A DNA stretch of 59,077 nt from contig JAMCUI010000020.1 of assembly GCA_023379265.1 (NCBI GenBank), forward strand, positions 1 to 59,077. The letters are read 5' to 3'. The stretch is from Patescibacteria group bacterium (lineage in GTDB: Bacteria > Patescibacteriota > Microgenomatia > 2-02-FULL-39-11). Positions 5,039 through 32,968 of the stretch are shown piece after piece. The position numbers and the translations under genes are program-made. A model generated the notes under the pieces. The model saw only the letters and a list, made by a program, of their open reading frames with translations, did not search any database and had not been told where the DNA came from. Numbering within the stretch: the first letter of the stretch is position 1; the number at the start of each line of letters is the position of its first letter.

Positions 5039-7946
5039 AATTATTATTAGAGGAGCACGTGAACACAACCTTAAAAATATCAGTCTGGAACTTCCCAAAT
5101 ACAAACTGATTGTTTTTACTGGAGTATCCGGTAGCGGAAAATCCTCACTTGCTTTTGATACAATTTATGCTGAAGGACAAAGAAGATATGTGGAAAGTCT
5201 GTCTTCTTATGCCAGGCAGTTCTTGGGCGTAATGGATAAACCGGATGTGGATGCCATAGACGGTTTGTCACCAGCCATTTCCATAGACCAGAAATCCACT
5301 TCCCATAACCCCAGGTCTACAGTGGGGACGGTTACGGAAATTTATGATTATCTTAGGCTACTTTTTGCAAGAGTAGGCCGTCCACACTGTCCAAACTGCG
5401 GCAGGGAAATAGTACGGCAAACATCAGACCAAATAGTTGAAAAATTATTTCAGATTTCAGAAAATAGTGGAAAATTGGGAAAGAGGCCTGAGCGTTTTCT
5501 TATACTTTCTCCAGTAGTTAGGGATAGAAAAGGGGAATTTTCCCATCTTTTAGACAATCTCAAATCTAAAGGTTTTACAAAAGTACGTATAGATGGAACT
5601 ATCTTCTCCCTTGACGAAGACCTAGTTCTTATTAAAACAAACAAACATTCCATAGATGTTGTAGTTGATAGAATAACTTTTGATAAAAATAAATTAAAGA
5701 ATAAGGAAGATAAGCAAAGTTTGCGTTCAAGACTTATTGAATCCACTGAGACGGCTACATCACTTTCTGAAGGATTAGTCATATATTCGGCTGTCAATGA
5801 TGCAGACTTCACATTTCCCGACAAGCCCAAAAAACTTTCAGACCAGCTTTATTCCGAAAAGTTTTCCTGTCCGGTATGCAATATCTCCCTGCCTGAAATT
5901 GAACCGCGTATCTTCTCGTTTAATTCTCCCCACGGCGCTTGTCCTAAATGTAGCGGACTGGGTAATCTACTCAGGATTGACCCGAAACTGGTCATAAACC
6001 CCAATCTTTCCATAAGCGAAGGGGGAATCTTACCCTTTGCCAGAATGATCTTGGGCGATACCTGGTTTGGCAGAATTTTGACTACTGTGGCCCAAAAAAT
6101 AGGCATTAAAATAGATCGGCCACTAAAGGAAGCCACAGACAAAAAACTGGAACTGCTTCTTTTTGGCACTGGAGAAGAAATACATGAAATCCAGGGAGAA
6201 AACCGGTACGGTCGGGAAGTGACCATATATGAAGAATTTGCAGGAGTGGTGCCGGAATTGGAAAAGAGATTCTCATCTACTGAATCAGAGTATGTCAGAA
6301 ATGAAATCGGAAAATACCTCAGGGAAGAGATTTGCCCACTTTGTGCCGGGAAAAGACTGAAAAAGGAAGCCTTATCGGTGACAATAGACGAAAAATCAAT
6401 TGTTGACGTTACAACCCTCTCCATAAAGCAGATGAGTGACTGGATACACAAAATTCAGCTTTCGTTGTCCAACCGGGAGAAAACAATAGGTTCTCTCATA
6501 ATAAAGGAAATACAAAACAGGTTATCTTTTCTCATTTCTGTCGGGTTGGACTACCTGACTCTTGAACGAAGCGCCAATACGCTTGCAGGCGGTGAAGCGC
6601 AAAGGATAAGGCTTGCCTCTCAGATCGGCTCAGGGCTTTCCGGAGTGCTTTATGTTTTGGATGAACCGTCCATAGGGCTCCATCCCCGCGATAATTTTCG
6701 TCTTATCACCACGCTTAAAAAATTGAGAGATTTGGGAAATACCGTCATCGTAGTCGAACACGATAGGGAAATGATGCACAATGCAGACCTTATAGTGGAT
6801 TTTGGCCCGGCAGCCGGTAAGCATGGCGGCAACGTAATCGCCAGCGGGACAACCGAACAGATAATAAAGGACAAAAATTCACTGACAGGACTATATTTAT
6901 CCGGCAAAAGGAAAATTGTCCAATCTTCAAGTGAAAACGGCAATATTGTCAGTGCAAAACATCTTACAATAAGAAAATGCCAGGAAAACAACCTGAAAGA
7001 TATAGACGTCACTTTTCCCTTAGGCAAACTGATATGCATCACTGGGGTTTCAGGAAGCGGGAAATCGACTCTTATAGTTGATACACTTTATCATGCTTTA
7101 GCAAGCCGGTTCAATCCTTATCACAAGGAAAAAGGAGGCCTTTATTATTCACTGGAAGGTGAGAATCAGCTAAAAAGAGTCATCCTTATTGATCAATCAC
7201 CCATCGGCAGGACTCCGCGCAGCAATCCCGCTACTTATACAGGCGCTTTTACGTTTATTAGGGATCTTTTTTCCCAGACTCCGGATGCCAAGGCGCGCGG
7301 TTTTAAGGCAGGAAGGTTTTCCTTTAATGTCAAAGGCGGCAGGTGTGAGGCATGTGAGGGTGAAGGCCAAACAAAAATAGAAATGCAGTTTCTACCAGAT
7401 GTCTATGTCAGTTGTGAAGTTTGCCGCGGTACGCGCTTTAACTCGGAGACTCTTGAAGTTCTTTTTAAGAATAAGAGCATATCTGACGTGTTAAACATGA
7501 CAGTTGAAGAAGCTGCAAACTTTTTTGCCAATATACCGGGCCTATCGGGAAAACTTGAGACACTAAAGGATGTAGGTTTGTCCTATATACAGCTTGGTCA
7601 ACCCGCACCCCAACTTTCAGGTGGGGAGGCGCAAAGAGTCAAACTGGCAACAGAGCTGTCCAAAAAAGGCTCAAACGACATATTATACATATTGGATGAA
7701 CCCACCACAGGCCTGCACTTTGCGGACCTGGAAAAACTTCTTTATGTGCTGCGTCAACTTGTGAAAATGGGCAACACCGTGATTGTCATAGAACACAATC
7801 TCGATATTATAAAAAATGCTGATTGGATAATAGATCTGGGGCCGGAAGGAGGAGAAGCTGGAGGAAAGGTTATTGGTACTGGATCAGTAAAAGATATTAT
7901 AAATAATCCGGCTTCATATACGGGAAAATCCCTTCAGCATGAATAA
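5016..7946 (+). CDS. uvrA: Excinuclease ABC subunit A
   Basis: GAREHNLK, two GVSGSGKS Walker A motifs, CxxC zinc fingers, LSGGEAQR; ATG at 5016 preferred over TTG at 4971. Confidence 0.97.
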
Positions 7947-9809: not shown

Positions 9810-10823
9810 ATGAAGAAAGAAAACGCTATAAGTAACAAAAAATTTGTCGTCATCGGAGGGGGAACCGGAACTTTTAGCGTGCTATCAGGACTGAAGAAAT
9901 ATACAGATCACATTACCGCCATAGTTACCATGGCGGATTCAGGCGGAAGCGCAAAGAAAGAGAGGGATGAATGGGGTCTTTTACCAAGCAGCGATGTGAG
10001 AAAGTCGCTTATTGCCTTGAGTAACGGATCCTCAGGCGATTCACTTCTTTTAAGAAAACTTTTCCAGTACCGTTATAGTGAGGGAAGAGGCATACGAGGT
10101 ATGAGCTTTGGTAATCTTTTTCTGGTCGCGCTAACCAAACTTTTGGGTTCGCAGGAAAAAGCAATTGAAAAGGCAGGAGACATTTTGAAAATTAGGGGCA
10201 GGGTGCTGCCAGTTTCTTTTGACAAAGTGGATTTGGTAGCCAAATATGAAAACGGGTCCACAGTTGTCGGCGAACACTTCATAGATGATCCCAAGGACAA
10301 CGGTAAAGTAAAAATTACGCAGTTGGCTACTAAGCCGCGTACCAAAATTACAAATGAGGCAAAAAAGGCAATTCTGGAAAGCGATGTGATAATTATTGGA
10401 CCGGGAGGTTTTTACACTACAATCTTGGCTAATTTTGCCGTTTCAGGGGTAAAAGAGGCTATCATGCAAAGCAGGTCCCAAAAAATATTCATACTGAACC
10501 TTATGACTGAATACGGACAGACATATGAGTTTTCTGCTTCCACTTTTATTAAGGAACTGGATAAATATTTACCTGTTACGTCATTGGACTTTGTATTTGC
10601 CAACAATGCGCATATTCCCGACGACGTACTGAAGAAATACAGAAAATATCACGCAATTCCTGTATTAAATGACCTCCCCAAAAAAATCCCTTTTAAGCTT
10701 GTGAGCGCCGATCTCCTTTCTTCGCAAAAAATTGCTATGGAAAAAGGTGACACTCTCAAAAGAAGCCTCATACGCCACGACCCCGAAAAAATAGTCTCGT
10801 TATGTATAAAACTCTTAACTTAA
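9810..10823 (+). CDS. yvcK: YvcK/GlmR (CofD/UPF0052 family) UDP-GlcNAc-binding protein
   Basis: VVIGGGTG, IVTMADSGGS, IIIGPG and C-terminal IRHDPEK motifs. Confidence 0.88.
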   Translation: MKKENAISNKKFVVIGGGTGTFSVLSGLKKYTDHITAIVTMADSGGSAKKERDEWGLLPSSDVRKSLIALSNGSSGDSLLLRKLFQYRYSEGRGIRGMSFGNLFLVALTKLLGSQEKAIEKAGDILKIRGRVLPVSFDKVDLVAKYENGSTVVGEHFIDDPKDNGKVKITQLATKPRTKITNEAKKAILESDVIIIGPGGFYTTILANFAVSGVKEAIMQSRSQKIFILNLMTEYGQTYEFSASTFIKELDKYLPVTSLDFVFANNAHIPDDVLKKYRKYHAIPVLNDLPKKIPFKLVSADLLSSQKIAMEKGDTLKRSLIRHDPEKIVSLCIKLLT

Positions 10824-12407: not shown

Positions 12408-12445
12408 GTTTACCCAGTAAATTTATGATCACAAATTTAACTGGG
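12408..12445 (+). repeat. GTTTA-tagged hairpin, copy A, abutting a duplicated tRNA-Leu 3' end
   Basis: gttta-cccagtaaattt-atgatcac-aaatttaactggg, followed by tgccgcgggtgggaatctaacc (12446-12467, one mismatch to the tRNA 3' end). Confidence 0.75.
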
Positions 12446-12518
12446 TGCCGCGGGTGGGAATCTAACCGGATGCGTCTAAATCAGGCCTACCTTTGTTTTA
12501 GGTTTATATGCTTAACTG

Positions 12519-12606
12519 TGCCGCGGGTGGGAATCGAACCCACACAACCGGATTGACGGTTACAGGATTTTAAGTCCTGCGCGTATACCTGTTTCGCCAC
12601 CGCGGC
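12519..12606 (-). tRNA. tRNA-Leu(TAA)
   Basis: GCCGCGG/CCGCGGC-A acceptor, anticodon arm CAGGA-CTTAAAA-TCCTG, long variable arm, GGTTCGATTCC. Confidence 0.93.
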
Positions 12607-12661: not shown

Positions 12662-13093
12662 ATGACTAAAAAAACAAATGTCATCAGCATAAGATTCTAT
12701 AAACCAGCTGATTATAAAGAATTATCTGAAAACTTAAAATCAGCAAGGATGCTGCACCTTCCTACTGATTCAGAAATAAATTTCAACAAGAAAATAAAAA
12801 GAAACCCAGATTCAATCCTTATTGGGCAAATCGATGGAAAATTCGCCGGAAATATAGTAATAAGCGAAGACGGCTGGAATGCAGTCCTTTTCAGGTTGGC
12901 AGTGAGTCAAAAATACAGAAAGCAGGGGATAGGTACAAAATTGCTGGAAAAAGCAGTCAATATATTAAAAAGGAAAAGATATGACAATGTACTCCTTATG
13001 GCAGACCCAAACGACAAGGCTCTTATAAAATTCTACAAACACCGCGGATTTCATCCTCTTGTTGAAAGGCTTTTGATGGTAAAGAAACTATAA
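12662..13093 (+). CDS. GNAT-family N-acetyltransferase
   Basis: LAVSQKYRKQGIGTKLL acetyl-CoA motif A and FYKHRGF motif B. Confidence 0.88.
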   Translation: MTKKTNVISIRFYKPADYKELSENLKSARMLHLPTDSEINFNKKIKRNPDSILIGQIDGKFAGNIVISEDGWNAVLFRLAVSQKYRKQGIGTKLLEKAVNILKRKRYDNVLLMADPNDKALIKFYKHRGFHPLVERLLMVKKL

Positions 13094-13098
13094 GTTTC

Positions 13099-13320
13099 CT
13101 ACTTTTTAACAAAATTCTTTGAAAAATATTCTTTGAGCATCGTCATTAAAGTAGTTCTCCTCTTATTTGATTTCAAATATTTTTCTCTTCTTTTTGCATC
13201 TCTCATGTTTTTATATGCCTCATAGTGGATTATCTCTAACGGAATATACAGCTTTGTGGAAATATTTTCGCCCTTATTGTGAGAAATAATCCGTTGTTTT
13301 AAGTCTTCTGAGTAACCGAT
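13099..13320 (-). pseudogene. 5'-truncated small GIY-YIG nuclease (YhbQ/UPF0213 type)
   Basis: Manual translation IGYSEDLKQRIISHNKGENISTKLYIPLEIIHYEAYKNMRDAKRREKYLKS...; no start codon or GIY half, in-frame TGA just upstream. Confidence 0.8.
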
Positions 13321-17294: not shown

Positions 17295-17329
17295 GTTTAC
17301 ACAGTAAATTTCCTCAGAAATTTACTGTG
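17295..17329 (+). repeat. GTTTA-tagged hairpin, copy B
   Basis: gttta-cacagtaaatttc-ctca-gaaatttactgtg; compensatory CAC/GTG replaces CCC/GGG; overlaps the 3' end of the outer tRNA-like scaffold. Confidence 0.8.
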
Positions 17330-17511
17330 CCGAAGGTGGGAGTTGAACCCACATCCAATTTCTTGAACCAAGTACAAAATTTTGTGTGGGCTGGAGAGGA
17401 GTTGAACCTCCACGGGTTGCCCCATACGCCCCTGAAGCGTACGCGTCTTCCAGTTCCGCCACCAGCCCAAAATTTTTACGGGGCTTCGTCTGCCAATTCC
17501 GCCACTTCGGC
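17328..17511 (-). ncRNA. Outer class-II (Leu-like) tRNA scaffold whose anticodon region is replaced by an insert containing tRNA-Leu(CAG)
   Basis: GCCGAAG/CTTCGGC-A acceptor, TGGCGGAATTGGCAGACG D-arm, CAA-GAAA-TTG variable arm, GTGGG-TTCAACT-CCCAC T-arm; inner tRNA flanked by GTAAAAATTTT / AAAATTTTGTAC. Confidence 0.75.
17387..17468 (-). tRNA. tRNA-Leu(CAG), nested
   Basis: GGGCTGG/CCAGCCC-A acceptor, TACGC-TTCAGGG-GCGTA anticodon arm, GGG-GCAA-CCC variable arm, GGAGG-TTCAACT-CCTCT T-arm. Confidence 0.9.
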
Positions 17512-25611: not shown

Positions 25612-25693
25612 GCCGAGGTGGTGAAATTGGTATACACGCAGTCTTGAGGAGGCTGTGCCGTAAGGCGTGGAGGTTCAAGTCCTCTCCTCGGCA
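25612..25693 (+). tRNA. tRNA-Leu(GAG)
   Basis: GCCGAGG/CCTCGGC-A acceptor; CAGTC-TTGAGGA-GGCTG anticodon arm; variable arm present. Confidence 0.93.
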
Positions 25694-25723
25694 CTGAAGA
25701 ATTTCTTTCAGAAATTCTGAAGT

Positions 25724-25796
25724 GCGCCTGTAGCTCAATGGATAGAGCAACTCCCTTCTAAGGAGTAGGTTGTGGGTTCGACTCCCGCCAGGCGCG
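25724..25796 (+). tRNA. tRNA-Arg(TCT)
   Basis: GCGCCTG/CAGGCGC-G acceptor; ACTCC-CTTCTAA-GGAGT anticodon arm. Confidence 0.93.
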
Positions 25797-30466: not shown

Positions 30467-32266
30467 CTAAGTATTTTTATATAAATCAAAAAAAATTTCC
30501 TGAGGCAAATCCACGTTCCCCACAGACCTCATCTTTTTCTTTCCTTTTTTTTGTGCTTCAAGAAGCTTATCTTTCCTCGTCCTGTCTCCTCCATAAAGTT
30601 TTTGGGTGACGTCCTTCCTGAATGACTTTACATCCGATCTTGCTACAACTTTACCGCCTATAGCAGCTTGGATAGGTATCTGAAACTGATGGCGGGGAAT
30701 AAGCTCCTTTAATCGGGATACCATTTTTTCCGCGACATTCTGCACTTTTTCCCGGACTACAATTTGTGCAAATGCGTCAACCTTTTTATGGTTTATGAGA
30801 ATATCAACTTTTACTGCATCCACTTTCCTCATCTCATAAAATTCATAGTCCAGGCTGGCATAACCGGAGGTTTGTGATTTGAGACCGTCAAAAAAATCAA
30901 CTATCATCTCTGAAAGCGGAATAAGGTATGTAAATTTCGCCTGGCTTCCGATATATTCCAAATTGACATATTCTGCTCTCTTTGTTTCGCAAAGTTGCAT
31001 GACATTCCCCACATATTCAGAAGGTGAGTAGATGGTAGTATACATGAGCGGCTCTTTTATCTCCTTTATCTGGGATGGGTCGGGAAAATCATCAGGCGTA
31101 TGCACATTTTTTATTTCTCCAGTAACTATCACGATTCCATACTCTACAGTGGGAGCGGTAGCAATTACATTCAAAAGGAATTCCTTTTCCAGCCTTTCCC
31201 TTATGATATCGGCATGCAATAACCCCAAAAAGCCACAAAGATATCCTTTCCCCAAAGCCAGGGATGAATGCAATTTATAGGTGAATGAGCTGTCTGACAA
31301 ATGTAATTTCTCAAGTGACTCCCTCAAGATGAGGAAATCATTGCTGTCGGTTGGGTAAAGTGAGAGATACACCATTGGCTTTGGCTCTTTGTAACCGGGC
31401 AAAGGCTCCGTATTTTGGTTCACAGCCGATACCGTATCACCGACTCTAGCCAAAGATAGATCTTTGAGACCGGTTGATATATATCCCACTTCCCCGGTAG
31501 ACAGTTTACCGGTTGTTTTCATTTCAGGAGTAAAAACACCTATGTCCACAGGGTGAAAAACTGCTTTGGAAGCCATAAACCGAAATTGTGCCTGCTCGAC
31601 TATCCCATCGACTATTTTTACAAATATCACCACTCCCTTATGGATGTCATAAACCGAGGAAAATACCAACGCTTTGACCGGATCGGTTTCACTTCCGCCC
31701 GGAGCAGGAATCCTTTCTATTACTGCACCCAACACTTTGTCTATATTGGTACCGCTTTTTGCCGATATTTCGATCATTTCCTCCTTATCAAATCCGAAGA
31801 GTTGTGAAAGCGCGGATTTTGTCTCTTCAATCTTTGCAGTCGGAAGGTCAATCTTGTTTATGACAGGTATCACTTTTAGGTTTTTATCCTTTATCAGCGC
31901 CATATGAGCTACAGTTTGGGCTTGTATACCCTGTGTGGCGTCTACTACAAGGATGATCCCTTCACAAGCTGCCAGAGACCTCGATACTTCATAGGAAAAA
32001 TCCACATGTCCCGGTGTATCGATAAGGTTTAGTATGTATTCCTCTCCGTTTGACATATATTTCATTCTGACCGGAGCAAGCTTTATAGTGATACCCCTCT
32101 CCCTCTCGATAGGATTGCTGTCTAGCACCTGCTCTTTCATAAGACGGGGTTCAATAGTTCCCGTGGCTTCAAGCAATCTGTCTGCCAGGGTGCTTTTACC
32201 GTGGTCAATATGTGCTACGATGGCAAAATTTCTGGTATATTTCTGGTTGTCCATAGAATAATCCAT
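30467..32266 (-). CDS. lepA: Elongation factor 4 (LepA)
   Basis: AHIDHGKSTLADR, ERERGITIK, DTPGHVDF, GFLGLLH, KLYGGDRTRKDKLLE. Confidence 0.97.
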   Translation of the reverse strand: MDYSMDNQKYTRNFAIVAHIDHGKSTLADRLLEATGTIEPRLMKEQVLDSNPIERERGITIKLAPVRMKYMSNGEEYILNLIDTPGHVDFSYEVSRSLAACEGIILVVDATQGIQAQTVAHMALIKDKNLKVIPVINKIDLPTAKIEETKSALSQLFGFDKEEMIEISAKSGTNIDKVLGAVIERIPAPGGSETDPVKALVFSSVYDIHKGVVIFVKIVDGIVEQAQFRFMASKAVFHPVDIGVFTPEMKTTGKLSTGEVGYISTGLKDLSLARVGDTVSAVNQNTEPLPGYKEPKPMVYLSLYPTDSNDFLILRESLEKLHLSDSSFTYKLHSSLALGKGYLCGFLGLLHADIIRERLEKEFLLNVIATAPTVEYGIVIVTGEIKNVHTPDDFPDPSQIKEIKEPLMYTTIYSPSEYVGNVMQLCETKRAEYVNLEYIGSQAKFTYLIPLSEMIVDFFDGLKSQTSGYASLDYEFYEMRKVDAVKVDILINHKKVDAFAQIVVREKVQNVAEKMVSRLKELIPRHQFQIPIQAAIGGKVVARSDVKSFRKDVTQKLYGGDRTRKDKLLEAQKKGKKKMRSVGNVDLPQEIFFDLYKNT

Positions 32267-32340
32267 ATTATATAGTAAAAATGCTATAATCGGAGATGGT
32301 CAAATGCGTCGCGTCTAACGCGACAGCCACGTTTGACGTG

Positions 32341-32413
32341 GCGCTCGTAGCTTAACGGATAAAGCACTTGTCTTCGGAACAAGGGATTGGGTGTTCGAAT
32401 CACCCCGAGCGCG
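32341..32413 (+). tRNA. tRNA-Arg(TCG)
   Basis: GCGCTCG/CGAGCGC-G acceptor; CTTGT-CTTCGGA-ACAAG anticodon arm. Confidence 0.9.
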
Positions 32414-32448
32414 CCCAGTAAATTTCTGAAGAAATTTACTGGGTAAAC
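32414..32448 (-). repeat. GTTTA-tagged hairpin, copy C (left flank of the GIY-YIG gene)
   Basis: cccagtaaatttc-tgaa-gaaatttactggg-taaac: perfect 13-bp stem starting at the base after the tRNA discriminator. Confidence 0.85.
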
Positions 32449-32458
32449 AGTTTAATAT

Positions 32459-32710
32459 ATGTGGTATTTGTATATTGTAAAATGCAATGATAACTCTTTA
32501 TACACAGGTATAACTACTGATCTAAAAAGAAGGGAAATTGAACACAACACAGATAACAAACGGGGAGCCAAATCTCTTCGTGGAAAACGTCCTGTAACAA
32601 TGGTATATTATGAAACATACTTTTCCCAGTCTGAAGCAAGAAAACGTGAAGCTCAAATTAAGAAATGGAGTACAAGTTATAAGTGGAAATTGATAAGTCC
32701 TAAATACTAA
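32459..32710 (+). CDS. Stand-alone GIY-YIG nuclease (YhbQ/YazA, UPF0213)
   Basis: WYLYIVKCNDNSLYTGITTDLKRREIEHN...GAK..R..RPV...E......A.KRE..IKK. Confidence 0.92.
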   Translation: MWYLYIVKCNDNSLYTGITTDLKRREIEHNTDNKRGAKSLRGKRPVTMVYYETYFSQSEARKREAQIKKWSTSYKWKLISPKY

Positions 32711-32727
32711 AAAGTTAATATTACTGG

Positions 32728-32762
32728 GTTTACCCAGTAAAATTGGTCGCAATTTTACTGGG
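32728..32762 (+). repeat. GTTTA-tagged hairpin, copy D (right flank of the GIY-YIG gene)
   Basis: gttta-cccagtaaaattg-gtcg-caattttactggg; the final GGG is the 5' end of tRNA-Lys; preceded by a residual half site ttactgg. Confidence 0.85.
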
Positions 32763-32832
32763 CCGCTAGCTCAATTGGCAGAGCAATTCCCTCTTAAGGA
32801 ATCGGTTCCGAGTTCGACTCTCGGGCGGCTCA
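32760..32832 (+). tRNA. tRNA-Lys(CTT)
   Basis: GGGCCGC/GCGGCTC-A acceptor; ATTCC-CTCTTAA-GGAAT anticodon arm. Confidence 0.92.
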
Positions 32833-32968
32833 CAAACTGGTAACGAAACTGGTAAAAATCATCACTTAGCCGATACATGGCTCCATTTTATGGGTTCCAA
32901 AAACGATACAGTTAGCTCTCACAAACTGTCATACAGTTACAAGTAAGGCTTGATACTTAAAGGGAAAA

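Follow-up and report, generated by a model that had tools for sequence, protein, structure and literature searches.

What brings a tiny nuclease gene and two inverted DNA hairpins together between a pair of tRNA genes, and has the nuclease anything to do with the spread of the hairpins? The question is posed by positions 32341-32832 of contig JAMCUI010000020.1 (assembly GCA_023379265.1) of a Patescibacteria group bacterium, an ultra-small organism whose genome is here called G000. The window, i.e. the whole stretch of DNA that was analysed, is the entire contig C20 with its 59,077 nucleotides. The G000 assembly comprises 1.53 Mb in 20 contigs with about 40% G+C and 46 tRNA genes, and is 93.7% complete. 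In the interval in question a hairpin with a TAAAC tag follows a tRNA-Arg gene, a second hairpin with a GTTTA tag precedes a tRNA-Lys gene, and a gene for an 83-residue GIY-YIG nuclease lies between the tags. The original prediction, made from the window, was that the nuclease recognises the hairpins and spreads them. The analysis described here points elsewhere. The hairpins are probably a family of tagged, AT-rich DNA palindromes, akin to the repetitive extragenic palindromic (REP) elements, copied at the DNA level over stem-loop slots of stable-RNA genes, one sequence variant having multiplied to 16 near-identical copies in a burst specific to the G000 lineage. The nuclease gene is, in the same account, a separate and older resident of the tRNA-Arg/tRNA-Lys spacer and a member of a multi-copy family of tiny Slx1-like nucleases in tRNA clusters. 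Taken together, these statements are held with a confidence that leans only slightly towards acceptance.

The features that define the locus are the following.

32341 to 32413, plus strand: tRNA-Arg(TCG) gene (Rfam tRNA model, 67.8 bits; ARAGORN 32341-32415)
32414 to 32443, plus strand: left hairpin copy, trailer type (covariance model R1, introduced below, 48 bits)
32444 to 32450, plus strand: tag TAAACAG, on the side of the hairpin distal to tRNA-Arg (sequence)
32459 to 32710, plus strand: gene for the 83-residue minimal GIY-YIG nuclease (UPF0213 or bacterial Slx1-like, called type A here; Pfam PF01541, 70 bits)
32728 to 32732, plus strand: tag GTTTA, on the side of the hairpin distal to tRNA-Lys (sequence)
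32733 to 32762, plus strand: right hairpin copy, leader type (R1, 47.4 bits)
32760 to 32832, plus strand: tRNA-Lys(CTT) gene (Rfam tRNA model, 63 bits; ARAGORN 32760-32833)

The two hairpins with their inward tags (32414-32448 and 32728-32762) and the gene between them lie exactly where they were first predicted. The left hairpin is 30 nt long, with a 13-bp stem and a 4-nt loop, and folds with -17.4 kcal/mol (z -6.4); the right hairpin, also 30 nt long, folds with -18.2 kcal/mol (z -6.9). None of 200 shuffled sequences folded as well in either case. Because tRNA-Arg ends at 32413 according to Rfam (32415 according to ARAGORN), the left hairpin begins one base past the discriminator. TAAAC follows it directly at 32444-32448, and the open reading frame (ORF) starts 10 bases further on. 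Since tRNA-Lys starts at 32760, the final GGG of the right hairpin is also the first GGG of this tRNA. Both junctions had been read in the same way from the sequence, and the Rfam end of tRNA-Arg and the start of tRNA-Lys agree with that reading. The two copies are thus inverted relative to each other and bracket the ORF with their tags.

A covariance model, R1, was derived from an alignment of the clear copies and searched over the whole G000 genome. It gave 34 matches at E<=1. Two of these are marginal and the other 32 correspond to 16 sites, each matched on both strands because the sequence is a palindrome; the 16 sites are the sequences from which R1 was built. The family core is CAGTAAAWTT, a loop and AAWTTTACTG, and the shared unit is 30 nt long. 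The loops vary freely among the 16 copies. The stem cells are paired in 96% of cases, and four pairs vary with changes on both sides (17 cells). The covariation score was not reached by any of 500 shuffles, and controls in which the alignment was slid fall to 27-61% paired.

Fifteen of the 16 copies are inside annotated stable-RNA genes or not further than 110 nt from them, a fraction that amounts to 1.23% of the genome (binomial P=3e-28, or P=2e-14 if only 12% of the genome is counted as permissive). Ten copies are at tRNA ends or tRNA fragments, two are in 16S rRNA, one is in 23S rRNA, two are in RNase P RNA and one is in a protein gene. The idea of repeated, tagged, REP-like palindromes with compensatory pairing that are tied to tRNA ends, and the enrichment at tRNA ends for which a genome-wide count had been proposed, are both upheld by these figures. 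Five copies inside rRNA and RNase P RNA genes and the one inside a protein gene had, however, been overlooked.

Outside the locus, copies directly precede tRNA-Lys(TTT), tRNA-Asp and tRNA-Ala(GGC), in each case overlapping the first GGG of the tRNA. Another directly follows tRNA-Arg(CCG), and another is positioned 22 nt downstream of tRNA-Ile(GAT). The copy on contig C10 abuts a 21-nt 5' fragment of a tRNA (about 6413-6433), roughly 100 nt upstream of tRNA-Thr(TGT). When the copies were compared by BLAST together with 60-nt flanks, the hairpin was all that 14 of the 16 had in common. The sharing of flanks is limited to two tRNA-Lys leaders, the tRNA-Leu duplicate listed below and the tRNA bodies. 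The leaders are those of tRNA-Lys(CTT) and of tRNA-Lys(TTT) on contig C13, which have a 49-nt block in common at 95.9% identity.

Four copies, starting at 12413, 17300, 32414 and 32733, are in the window. The two that are remote from the nuclease gene have the following surroundings.

12408 to 12445, minus strand: solo tagged copy, trailer type, with one extra stem base (R1 37.6 bits; fold -12.9 kcal/mol, z -3.9)
12446 to 12468, minus strand: 23-nt duplicate of the tRNA-Leu(TAA) 3' end (BLAST, 95.7% over 23 nt to 12518-12540)
17295 to 17329, minus strand: solo tagged copy with CAC/GTG outer pairs (R1 46.2 bits; fold -15.1 kcal/mol, z -6.1)
17330 to 17360, minus strand: tRNA 3' fragment (T arm and acceptor strand) downstream of tRNA-Leu(CAG), abutting the solo copy (read from the sequence)

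The first solo copy abuts the duplicated tRNA-Leu end, as had been noticed, and the duplicate separates it from the intact tRNA-Leu(TAA) gene (12518-12606). For the second, the identification as a copy with compensatory CAC/GTG pairs was correct. The nested-tRNA scaffold next to which it was said to lie is only the T-arm and acceptor fragment, and neither ARAGORN nor Rfam called a whole tRNA at 17330-17360. That tRNA fragments separate copies from intact tRNA genes suggests that tRNA ends have repeatedly been sites of insertion or recombination.

The RNase P RNA gene (C9:29474-29935; positions 975-1436 of locus L003) is 462 nt long compared to the 367 positions of the model, and scores 87 bits (E=3e-26). 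Because of the insertions this is below the Rfam gathering score of 100, so that standard annotation would miss the gene. One of its two family copies was aligned by Infernal as helix P3. The copy in a protein gene (C19:55022-55051) is part of a 581-residue ORF (C19:54082-55824; positions 80-1825 of locus L004, minus strand). This ORF is predicted to encode a membrane protein, has many paralogues and matched no Pfam family. Its 90-nt in-frame block is an extended imperfect palindrome centred on the family hairpin.

These placements can be compared with those in relatives. G001 is the congener of G000, i.e. its sister species, and the other G numbers given below denote related genomes. At E<=0.001, R1 matches one of 60 other related genomes, namely G001, with one copy. 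On inspection of its loci, G001 holds one intact and at least one decayed copy. A scan for the exact pattern in one genome per species, over 185,579 species, returned seven single matches in unrelated taxa. A similar scan of metagenomes returned 13 loci, one of which (L121) is a tagged copy immediately after tRNA-Arg(TCT) with no GIY-YIG gene nearby. A near-identical, tagged counterpart of the 17295-17329 copy follows tRNA-Leu(TAG) in G001 and this tRNA-Arg(TCT) in L121.

At the rRNA and RNase P sites the hairpin takes the place of something else. The tips of the 16S V1 and V2 hairpins (helices 6 and 10) are the family hairpin in G000, and the same slots hold unrelated, mostly shorter hairpins in G001 and in eight other genera. 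The 23S rRNA of G000 has the family hairpin immediately upstream of the conserved GGUAGGAGAGCG (model positions about 1206-1227), a place where all nine other genomes aligned have a different one; the 23S rRNA of G001 was not found in its assembly. P3 and a second peripheral hairpin of RNase P RNA are family copies in G000 and different in G001 and four other genomes. The second of these sites is occupied in G001 by a short hairpin on an identical CCCAG/CTGGG base. The G001 orthologue of the 581-residue ORF is without the 90-nt block and is 80-88% identical around it, and the match of this ORF to G013 skips the 90-nt stretch as well.

The tRNA ends tell a similar story. The tRNA-Arg(TCG) trailer and the tRNA-Lys leader of G001 contain hairpins other than those of G000. 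Its tRNA-Lys(TTT) leader is occupied by a decayed copy with broken pairs and a retained tag, and its tRNA-Arg(CCG) trailer by a diverged, yet paired, homologue of the G000 copy. An intact tagged copy is found at tRNA-Leu(TAG) of G001, where G000 has none, and at tRNA-Leu(TAA) of G001 the TAAACAC box is kept behind a different hairpin. A DNA search gave no match for the tRNA-Asp locus in G001. According to these alignments, a single genus has seen gains, losses and swaps of copies, and an exchange of the hairpin tip need not affect the tag.

Four slots with a family hairpin in G000, namely 16S V2, RNase P P3, the Arg trailer and the Lys leader, share another motif in G001, YCUGAR...YGAAGRG with two G.A pairs (loci L013, L022 and L037). 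The CUGA...GAAG type of hairpin is also present in the tRNA-Lys leaders of G002 and G017, and one example is in the window.

25692 to 25724, plus strand: CUGA...GAAG-based hairpin filling the tRNA-Leu(GAG)/tRNA-Arg(TCT) spacer, outside the family (fold -12.6 kcal/mol)

This hairpin had been counted as a diverged family copy. It exists, but R1 did not find it at E<=1 and it is of a different type: it has a 2x2 internal loop with two non-Watson-Crick (G.A) pairs, and only the apical AATTTC...GAAATT is shared with the family.

The word GTTTAC[AC]CAGTAAA occurs at six copies, and a GTTTA or TTTA tag together with the hairpin at 11 of the 16. GTTTA precedes the leader copies at tRNA-Lys(TTT), tRNA-Asp and tRNA-Ala(GGC). 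A TAAACAC or TAAACGC box follows trailer hairpins in G001, G003, G004, G019 and the metagenome locus L121. Nine G000 copies adjoin a tRNA, intact or fragmentary, and in all of these, as in the tRNA-Leu(TAG) copy of G001, the tag is on the side distal to the tRNA; the tRNA-Ile(GAT) copy has a shorter TTTA on the tRNA side. The polarity of the tag is therefore identical at 5' and 3' tRNA ends. On RNA the order of parts would be GUUUA-hairpin-tRNA at one end but tRNA-hairpin-UAAAC at the other, so that the parts are symmetric as DNA but not as RNA. The self-complementary acceptor stem makes a tRNA gene, as DNA, appear the same from outside at either end.

The same tagged, AT-rich build was also recognised, at other tRNAs, in a lenient R1 search of ten relatives that was inspected by eye. 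GTTTA and a hairpin precede tRNA-Gly(GCC) in G016, GGTTTAC and a hairpin precede tRNA-Ser(GCT) in G003, and a hairpin followed by TAAACAC is located behind tRNA-Ala(CGC) in G004 and, in G002, behind a 3' end resembling that of a tRNA. G011 has the same hairpin, with CAAGCAC. The tagged-hairpin build is thus present across the bacterial family and older than the burst of 16 copies in G000, and different tRNAs are occupied in different genomes.

Some variants of the build stand apart. Among the copies of G003 that are away from tRNAs are two inverted tagged hairpins on contig C29, 12055-12083 and 18917-18945 (loci L179 and L182), which are 6.8 kb apart. Their inverted flanks reach beyond 50 nt, so a composite element is possible; the GIY-YIG matches found at E<=1e-8 include none on that contig. 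A trailer that recurs at many tRNA 3' flanks in G000 and its relatives, CAC-UUCG...CUCA-GUG, has the last bases of the tRNA paired distally across a UC/UC or GA/GA internal loop. Examples are at C11:57988-58005, after tRNA-Ala(TGC) on C19, and after tRNA-Arg(TCG) in G001, G002 and G017. Such trailers are often followed by an AAGCAC or AAGCGC box that resembles a variant of the TAAACAC tag. The second tRNA-Lys(CTT) gene of G001 (L140, contig C25, 1-140) is directly preceded by GGGTTTACCC, TG and TAAACA, so that both forms of the tag are back to back with no hairpin between them.

The polarity of the tag, the insertion into the ORF, the free loops and the decay in G001 make copying at the DNA level the best reading of these data. 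The hairpin would be copied onto places that already form stem-loops. One class of target would be the base of the acceptor stem, at the 5' or the 3' border of a tRNA gene, the tag facing outward. A second would be variable hairpins of 16S, 23S and RNase P RNA, where the copy takes the place of the former tip, and a third, used once, a protein gene, in frame. Template switching or repair synthesis on folded single strands, following a structure-specific nick, may be the mechanism.

Several observations weigh against this reading. The Pfam family Y1_Tnp (PF01797) has no match at E<=0.01 in the 93.7% complete G000, in a search whose control matched six of 14 known genomes. An enzyme of the IS200/IS605 kind or a REP-associated tyrosine transposase (RAYT) was rejected on this ground, nor was any other transposase or mobilising enzyme identified. 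There are no target-site duplications. Metagenome contigs from four runs in three studies showed no insertion polymorphism within the species. The contig joints that skip 32415-32759 come from more distant organisms, with six differences in 74 nt of tRNA-Arg. The copies in rRNA and RNase P RNA replace a hairpin tip exactly instead of being added to it, which is unlike classical transposition. The nearly exclusive link to stable RNAs, the maintained pairing and the use of terminal tRNA nucleotides in the outer pairs would also be expected of a selected RNA function, and the different motif shared by four of the same slots in G001 suggests that the slots could serve a common purpose at the RNA level. 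The compensatory changes do not discriminate here because a palindrome can correct itself by template switching.

These points lead to the alternative that the hairpin functions as a module of RNA, bound or processed in the precursors of tRNA, rRNA and RNase P RNA alike and kept uniform within a genome by selection for one partner or by gene conversion. The copies beside the nuclease gene would then be nothing but the trailer of tRNA-Arg and the leader of tRNA-Lys. This alternative, in both its parts, is considered improbable, if worth serious attention. It accounts for the presence of 15 of the 16 copies within stable-RNA transcripts, for the occupation of surface hairpin slots that vary among genera and for the double changes by which pairing is maintained; the trailer hairpins at the orthologous tRNA-Arg(CCG) genes pair in both G000 and G001 despite their unlike sequences. 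Unrelated flank hairpins, such as the CAC-UUCG...CUCA-GUG trailers and the CCUGA...GAAGG tRNA-Lys leaders of G001, G002 and G017, also build their outer pairs from the last or first nucleotides of the tRNA, just as the family does. The motif shared by 16S V2, P3, the Arg trailer and the Lys leader in G001 fits as well, and from a fusion to TrmH Dunin-Horkawicz et al. suggested an RNA role for bacterial Slx1-like proteins (PMC1564403).

On the other hand, the hairpin sequence is unconserved even in the congener, where one orthologous copy has lost pairs. One copy is inside a protein-coding gene, the loops are unconstrained and the polarity of the tag is symmetric on DNA, not on RNA. It is also unlikely that a sequence-specific partner was switched between two congeners. 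The sharing of a motif among slots in G001 could reflect a common role at the RNA level, or equally a copying of that species' prevailing tRNA-flank hairpin into the same permissive slots. Copying is preferred because of the non-conservation between congeners, the copy in the ORF and the symmetry of the tag on DNA. A role in RNA and copying of DNA could go together: REP elements, too, have effects on transcripts.

What would happen to such copies in RNA can be outlined for the locus itself, which has two further features.

32247 to 32276, plus strand: promoter-like site, candidate start of a tRNA-Arg/GIY-YIG/tRNA-Lys transcript (consensus scan 9/12, a pattern match only)
32721 to 32740, plus strand: small alternative hairpin TTACTGGG-TTTA-CCCAGTAA (sequence)

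A single transcript from the promoter-like site may span tRNA-Arg, the nuclease ORF and tRNA-Lys. In this proposed transcript tRNA-Arg would have the left copy as its 3' trailer, and tRNA-Lys the right copy as its 5' leader. Cuts by RNase Z and RNase P could free the tRNAs and would leave a nuclease mRNA with a stable hairpin at either end. No Shine-Dalgarno-like sequence is visible upstream of the GIY-YIG ATG. In the small hairpin at 32721-32740 a partial third arm and the tag pair with the 5' arm of the right copy, and a terminator scan flags it as an 8-pair stem on the minus strand. The neighbours of the locus are lepA, upstream on the opposite strand, and, downstream, a 255-residue ORF without a Pfam family.

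Other functions were considered for the tag and the hairpins and were rejected. A promoter is not formed by the tag, as TTTACC is only 3 nt from the closest -10-like word, and a promoter-like match in the right copy (32715-32743, 9/12) would initiate within the hairpin. The tag does not match the GTTRRRY/RYYYAAC core sites of an integron attC. The stems are AT-rich and are followed by TAAAC or by the tRNA, and neither copy was called on the plus strand by the terminator scan, which does not agree with intrinsic terminators.

The second alternative gives the nuclease itself the leading part, and its weighing requires a closer look at the protein and its relatives. PF01541 matches residues 1-73 of the 83-residue protein (70 bits), i.e. 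a complete catalytic domain with no auxiliary domain. The best matches in the Protein Data Bank are the UPF0213 entries 1ywl (E=7.6e-12) and 1zg2 (E=1.5e-10), and no NCBIfam family matched at E<=0.01. The two structures were placed in the bacterial Slx1-like branch, the minimal form of GIY-YIG (Dunin-Horkawicz et al. 2006, PMC1564403). G000 has six GIY-YIG matches, two of them in long frames (556 and 473 residues). The four small ones are the 83-residue gene, an 80-residue gene on contig C7, a remnant at 13156-13320 in the window and a sequence on contig C6 with an internal stop; only the first has flanking hairpin copies. The remnant (window 12662-13320) and the C7 gene (L010, 1297-2067) adjoin acetyltransferase-like ORFs of 143 and 167 residues, whose likeness to GNAT proteins was judged by eye.

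Homologues are present at E<=1e-8 in 19 of 21 genomes of the order, with one to five matches each, and 18 of 30 fetched loci are not more than 130 nt from a tRNA gene. In 10 of the 21 genomes (G000 and nine relatives) a GIY-YIG gene is in the tRNA-Arg(TCG)/tRNA-Lys(CTT) spacer, flanked by varied hairpins. G013 is included in this count: ARAGORN names its upstream tRNA otherwise, but the sequence reads like tRNA-Arg. Empty sites, which had been anticipated, were found in relatives: the spacer is empty (19 nt) in G005, and tRNA-Arg is joined directly to tRNA-Lys in metagenome contigs of other organisms. The spacer of G007 contains a different ORF, together with a duplicated 3' end of tRNA-Arg. 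That of G004 (L078, contig C76, 4532-5007) contains two small GIY-YIG genes, one of each of the two types, A and B, in tandem.

The type-A protein of G000 shares 63% identity with those of G003 and G004, but only 49% with its counterpart in the congener G001; the latter and the G013 protein are 71% identical. That both types occur in tandem in G004 suggests that they are old paralogues, lost differentially; an exchange between lineages may be the alternative. In G007 (L098, contig C13, about 10000-10350) a 17-nt duplicate of the tRNA-Cys 5' end is followed by an 82-residue GIY-YIG gene, and this by the intact tRNA-Cys, which begins one base past the stop codon. This arrangement looks like an insertion that rebuilt its target. 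The small GIY-YIG genes of the order thus behave in the manner of mobile cassettes associated with tRNAs.

The YhbQ/Slx1-type protein might nevertheless be the cognate enzyme that recognises and spreads the tagged hairpin. The gene and its two copies would then be an autonomous unit like a REP/RAYT unit, and the remaining copies its non-autonomous offspring. This is judged unlikely, although the layout, with inverted copies bracketing the gene and tags pointing inward, is what suggested it. Of the 92 tRNA ends, six directly abut a copy and two of these six face the GIY-YIG gene, for which the chance would be (6/92)(5/91)=0.004 if placement were random; this makes the link to the nuclease suggestive, though unproven. 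Some of the relatives add to the association. The type-A genes in the Arg-Lys spacers of G003 and G019 have a TAAAC(A/G)C box upstream and GGGTTTACCC at the 3' end, in the reading frame, whose end is formed by GGGTTTACCCTGA, homologous to sequence of the small hairpin at 32721-32740 (KGLP, then the stop). A type-A pseudogene of G001, with no tRNA nearby, has a TAAACAC box 24 nt upstream. G000, with an intact type-A gene, has 16 copies, and G001, with an in-frame TGA in type A, has one intact copy and at least one decayed. GIY-YIG genes of the order are strongly associated with tRNAs, and one follows the 17-nt tRNA-Cys duplicate. Enzymes of the Slx1 family cleave branched and stem-loop DNA (PMC6902002 and PMC8287910). 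The rRNA genes of the Candidate Phyla Radiation (CPR) have GIY-YIG genes in non-intron insertions, and most insertions are at the top or the base of a stem-loop (PMC11270868).

Recognition and spread of the hairpins by the nuclease are not supported. No GIY-YIG gene is near 14 of the 16 copies, so that only two flank one, and of the four small genes or remnants of G000 the other three have no flanking copy. The spacer genes of G001, G002, G013 and G017 are accompanied by unrelated, untagged hairpins; the sister species G001 thus has such a gene without hairpins of the family beside it. The association of the tag with type A is confounded by synteny, since the trailer of tRNA-Arg and the leader of tRNA-Lys are the sites concerned in every case. 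The type-A gene in the Phe-Gly spacer of G007 has no tags, and tagged hairpins are present in genomes whose Arg-Lys gene is of type B (G002 and G011). Presence and absence cannot be correlated, because 19 of the 21 genomes carry such genes. Tagged copies of the Lys-leader and Arg-trailer types are also at tRNA-Lys(TTT) and tRNA-Arg(CCG), and tagged hairpins of the same build are in G002, G003, G004, G016 and the metagenome contig, all of them without a GIY-YIG gene beside them. Finally, the protein is reduced to its catalytic domain, and no part of it is recognisable as DNA-binding.

In a wider form of the proposal, Slx1-like GIY-YIG proteins of CPR tRNA clusters would be trans-acting enzymes of a hitherto undescribed REP-like system that nick tagged hairpins in single-stranded DNA. 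The hairpin would subsequently be copied onto other stem-loop DNA, rewriting tRNA flanks and 16S, 23S and RNase P helices within the lifetime of one species. Both steps are speculative and rather doubtful.

The third alternative, that the hairpins are ordinary tRNA terminators or processing stems made alike by duplication of tRNA genes and AT-rich composition, with no copying process, has very little probability: many tRNA genes of G000 and G001 do have some hairpin directly at their ends and the two tRNA-Lys leaders with their shared 49 nt may stem from one duplication, but no U-tract follows the stems, tRNA duplication cannot explain near-identical 26-nt stems in 16S, 23S and RNase P RNA and in a protein gene, the hairpin and not the flanks is common to 14 of the 16 copies, and it is absent at the orthologous slots of relatives, so that this fallback of the original prediction is contradicted. 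Nor is it likely that the rRNA, RNase P and ORF copies are assembly artefacts, because contigs of another study contain the left copy with two differences in 266 nt.

Copying at the DNA level, the reading preferred here, has counterparts in several known systems. REP elements are short tagged palindromes of proteobacteria, present in many copies with lineage-specific sequences and associated with RAYT. The G000 family resembles them in being a set of short, imperfect palindromes tagged on one side and repeated, two inverted copies of which flank a small nuclease-type gene. The REP/RAYT layout combined with an enzyme other than an HUH enzyme, as originally described, is thus accurate for the layout, whereas no RAYT was found: the 93.7% complete G000 has no HUH/Y1 transposase match and the flanked gene encodes a GIY-YIG domain. 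The tag is GTTTA here compared to GTAG in REP elements, and there are only 16 copies. They are at tRNA ends and in rRNA and RNase P RNA, whereas REP elements occupy the extragenic 3' parts of mRNAs.

Rickettsia palindromic elements (RPE) are about 100-150 bp long, lack a transposase of their own and are inserted in frame in protein genes and also in RNA genes. The likeness is in the palindromic repeat without a transposase, the in-frame insertion in a protein gene and the permissive surface positions, in which the insertion is tolerated. However, the shared unit in G000 is 30 nt (90 nt for the ORF block), most copies are in stable-RNA genes with one in a protein gene, and the tag has a fixed polarity towards tRNA genes. 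Closer still in the proposed process are the small dispersed repeats of cyanobacteria, reportedly described by Elhai et al. in 2008 as very small palindromes copied at the DNA level into existing hairpins, for which no enzyme is known. They are alike in hairpin copying and differ in phylum and sequence. The intervening sequences (IVS) of rRNA, which are excised by RNase III, are another parallel. The G000 copies are at variable hairpin slots too, but are 30 nt long and replace the tip instead of being added to it.

As regards the nuclease gene, the free-standing, site-specific homing endonuclease SegB of phage T4 is larger than the 83-residue protein and carries a DNA-binding part. Unlike Seg-type enzymes, the G000 protein has no recognisable DNA-binding domain, belongs to the Slx1-like branch and is encoded in the same spacer in 10 of 21 genomes. 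The site varies, being empty in G005 and in the contigs of distant organisms and occupied alternately by two types of gene, with no empty allele seen within the species. SegB is a GIY-YIG enzyme encoded in the T4 tRNA gene cluster, and the two genes are alike in being nested between tRNA genes with their inheritance linked to the tRNA region (PMC2330249). By sequence, the G000 protein belongs to the bacterial Slx1-like/UPF0213 (YhbQ-type) proteins, reduced to the catalytic domain. A fusion to a TrmH-like tRNA methyltransferase hints at a link of these proteins to RNA metabolism, and nesting in tRNA clusters, seen at 18 of 30 loci here, goes unmentioned in the examined passages of that account (PMC1564403).

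A 2024 survey of CPR rRNA insertions found GIY-YIG genes in the non-intron ones and many short unclassified insertions at known 23S IVS sites (PMC11270868). The host group, the GIY-YIG genes and the sites at the top or base of stem-loops are common to that survey and the present case. Its examined passages describe no repeated tagged hairpin, no tRNA or RNase P RNA sites and no gene-less copies; the rRNA copies of G000 differ from the insertions it describes in being gene-less and no longer than an ordinary hairpin tip. No description of a tagged hairpin that recurs in rRNA, in RNase P RNA and beside the tRNAs of CPR bacteria was returned by a literature search, although the supplementary files of PMC11270868 may hold cases.

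If the preferred reading is true, peripheral helices of the ribosome and RNase P, together with the borders of tRNA genes, can be overwritten by a palindrome of 30 bases in the time that two congeneric species took to diverge. This would bear on the evolution of rRNA variable regions and on the trust placed in 16S V1 and V2 as neutral markers in CPR bacteria, and also on how selfish DNA survives in very small, gene-dense genomes. It would further bear on the role of the widespread, uncharacterised bacterial nucleases of the Slx1/YhbQ type, for which the tagged hairpin is a concrete candidate substrate.

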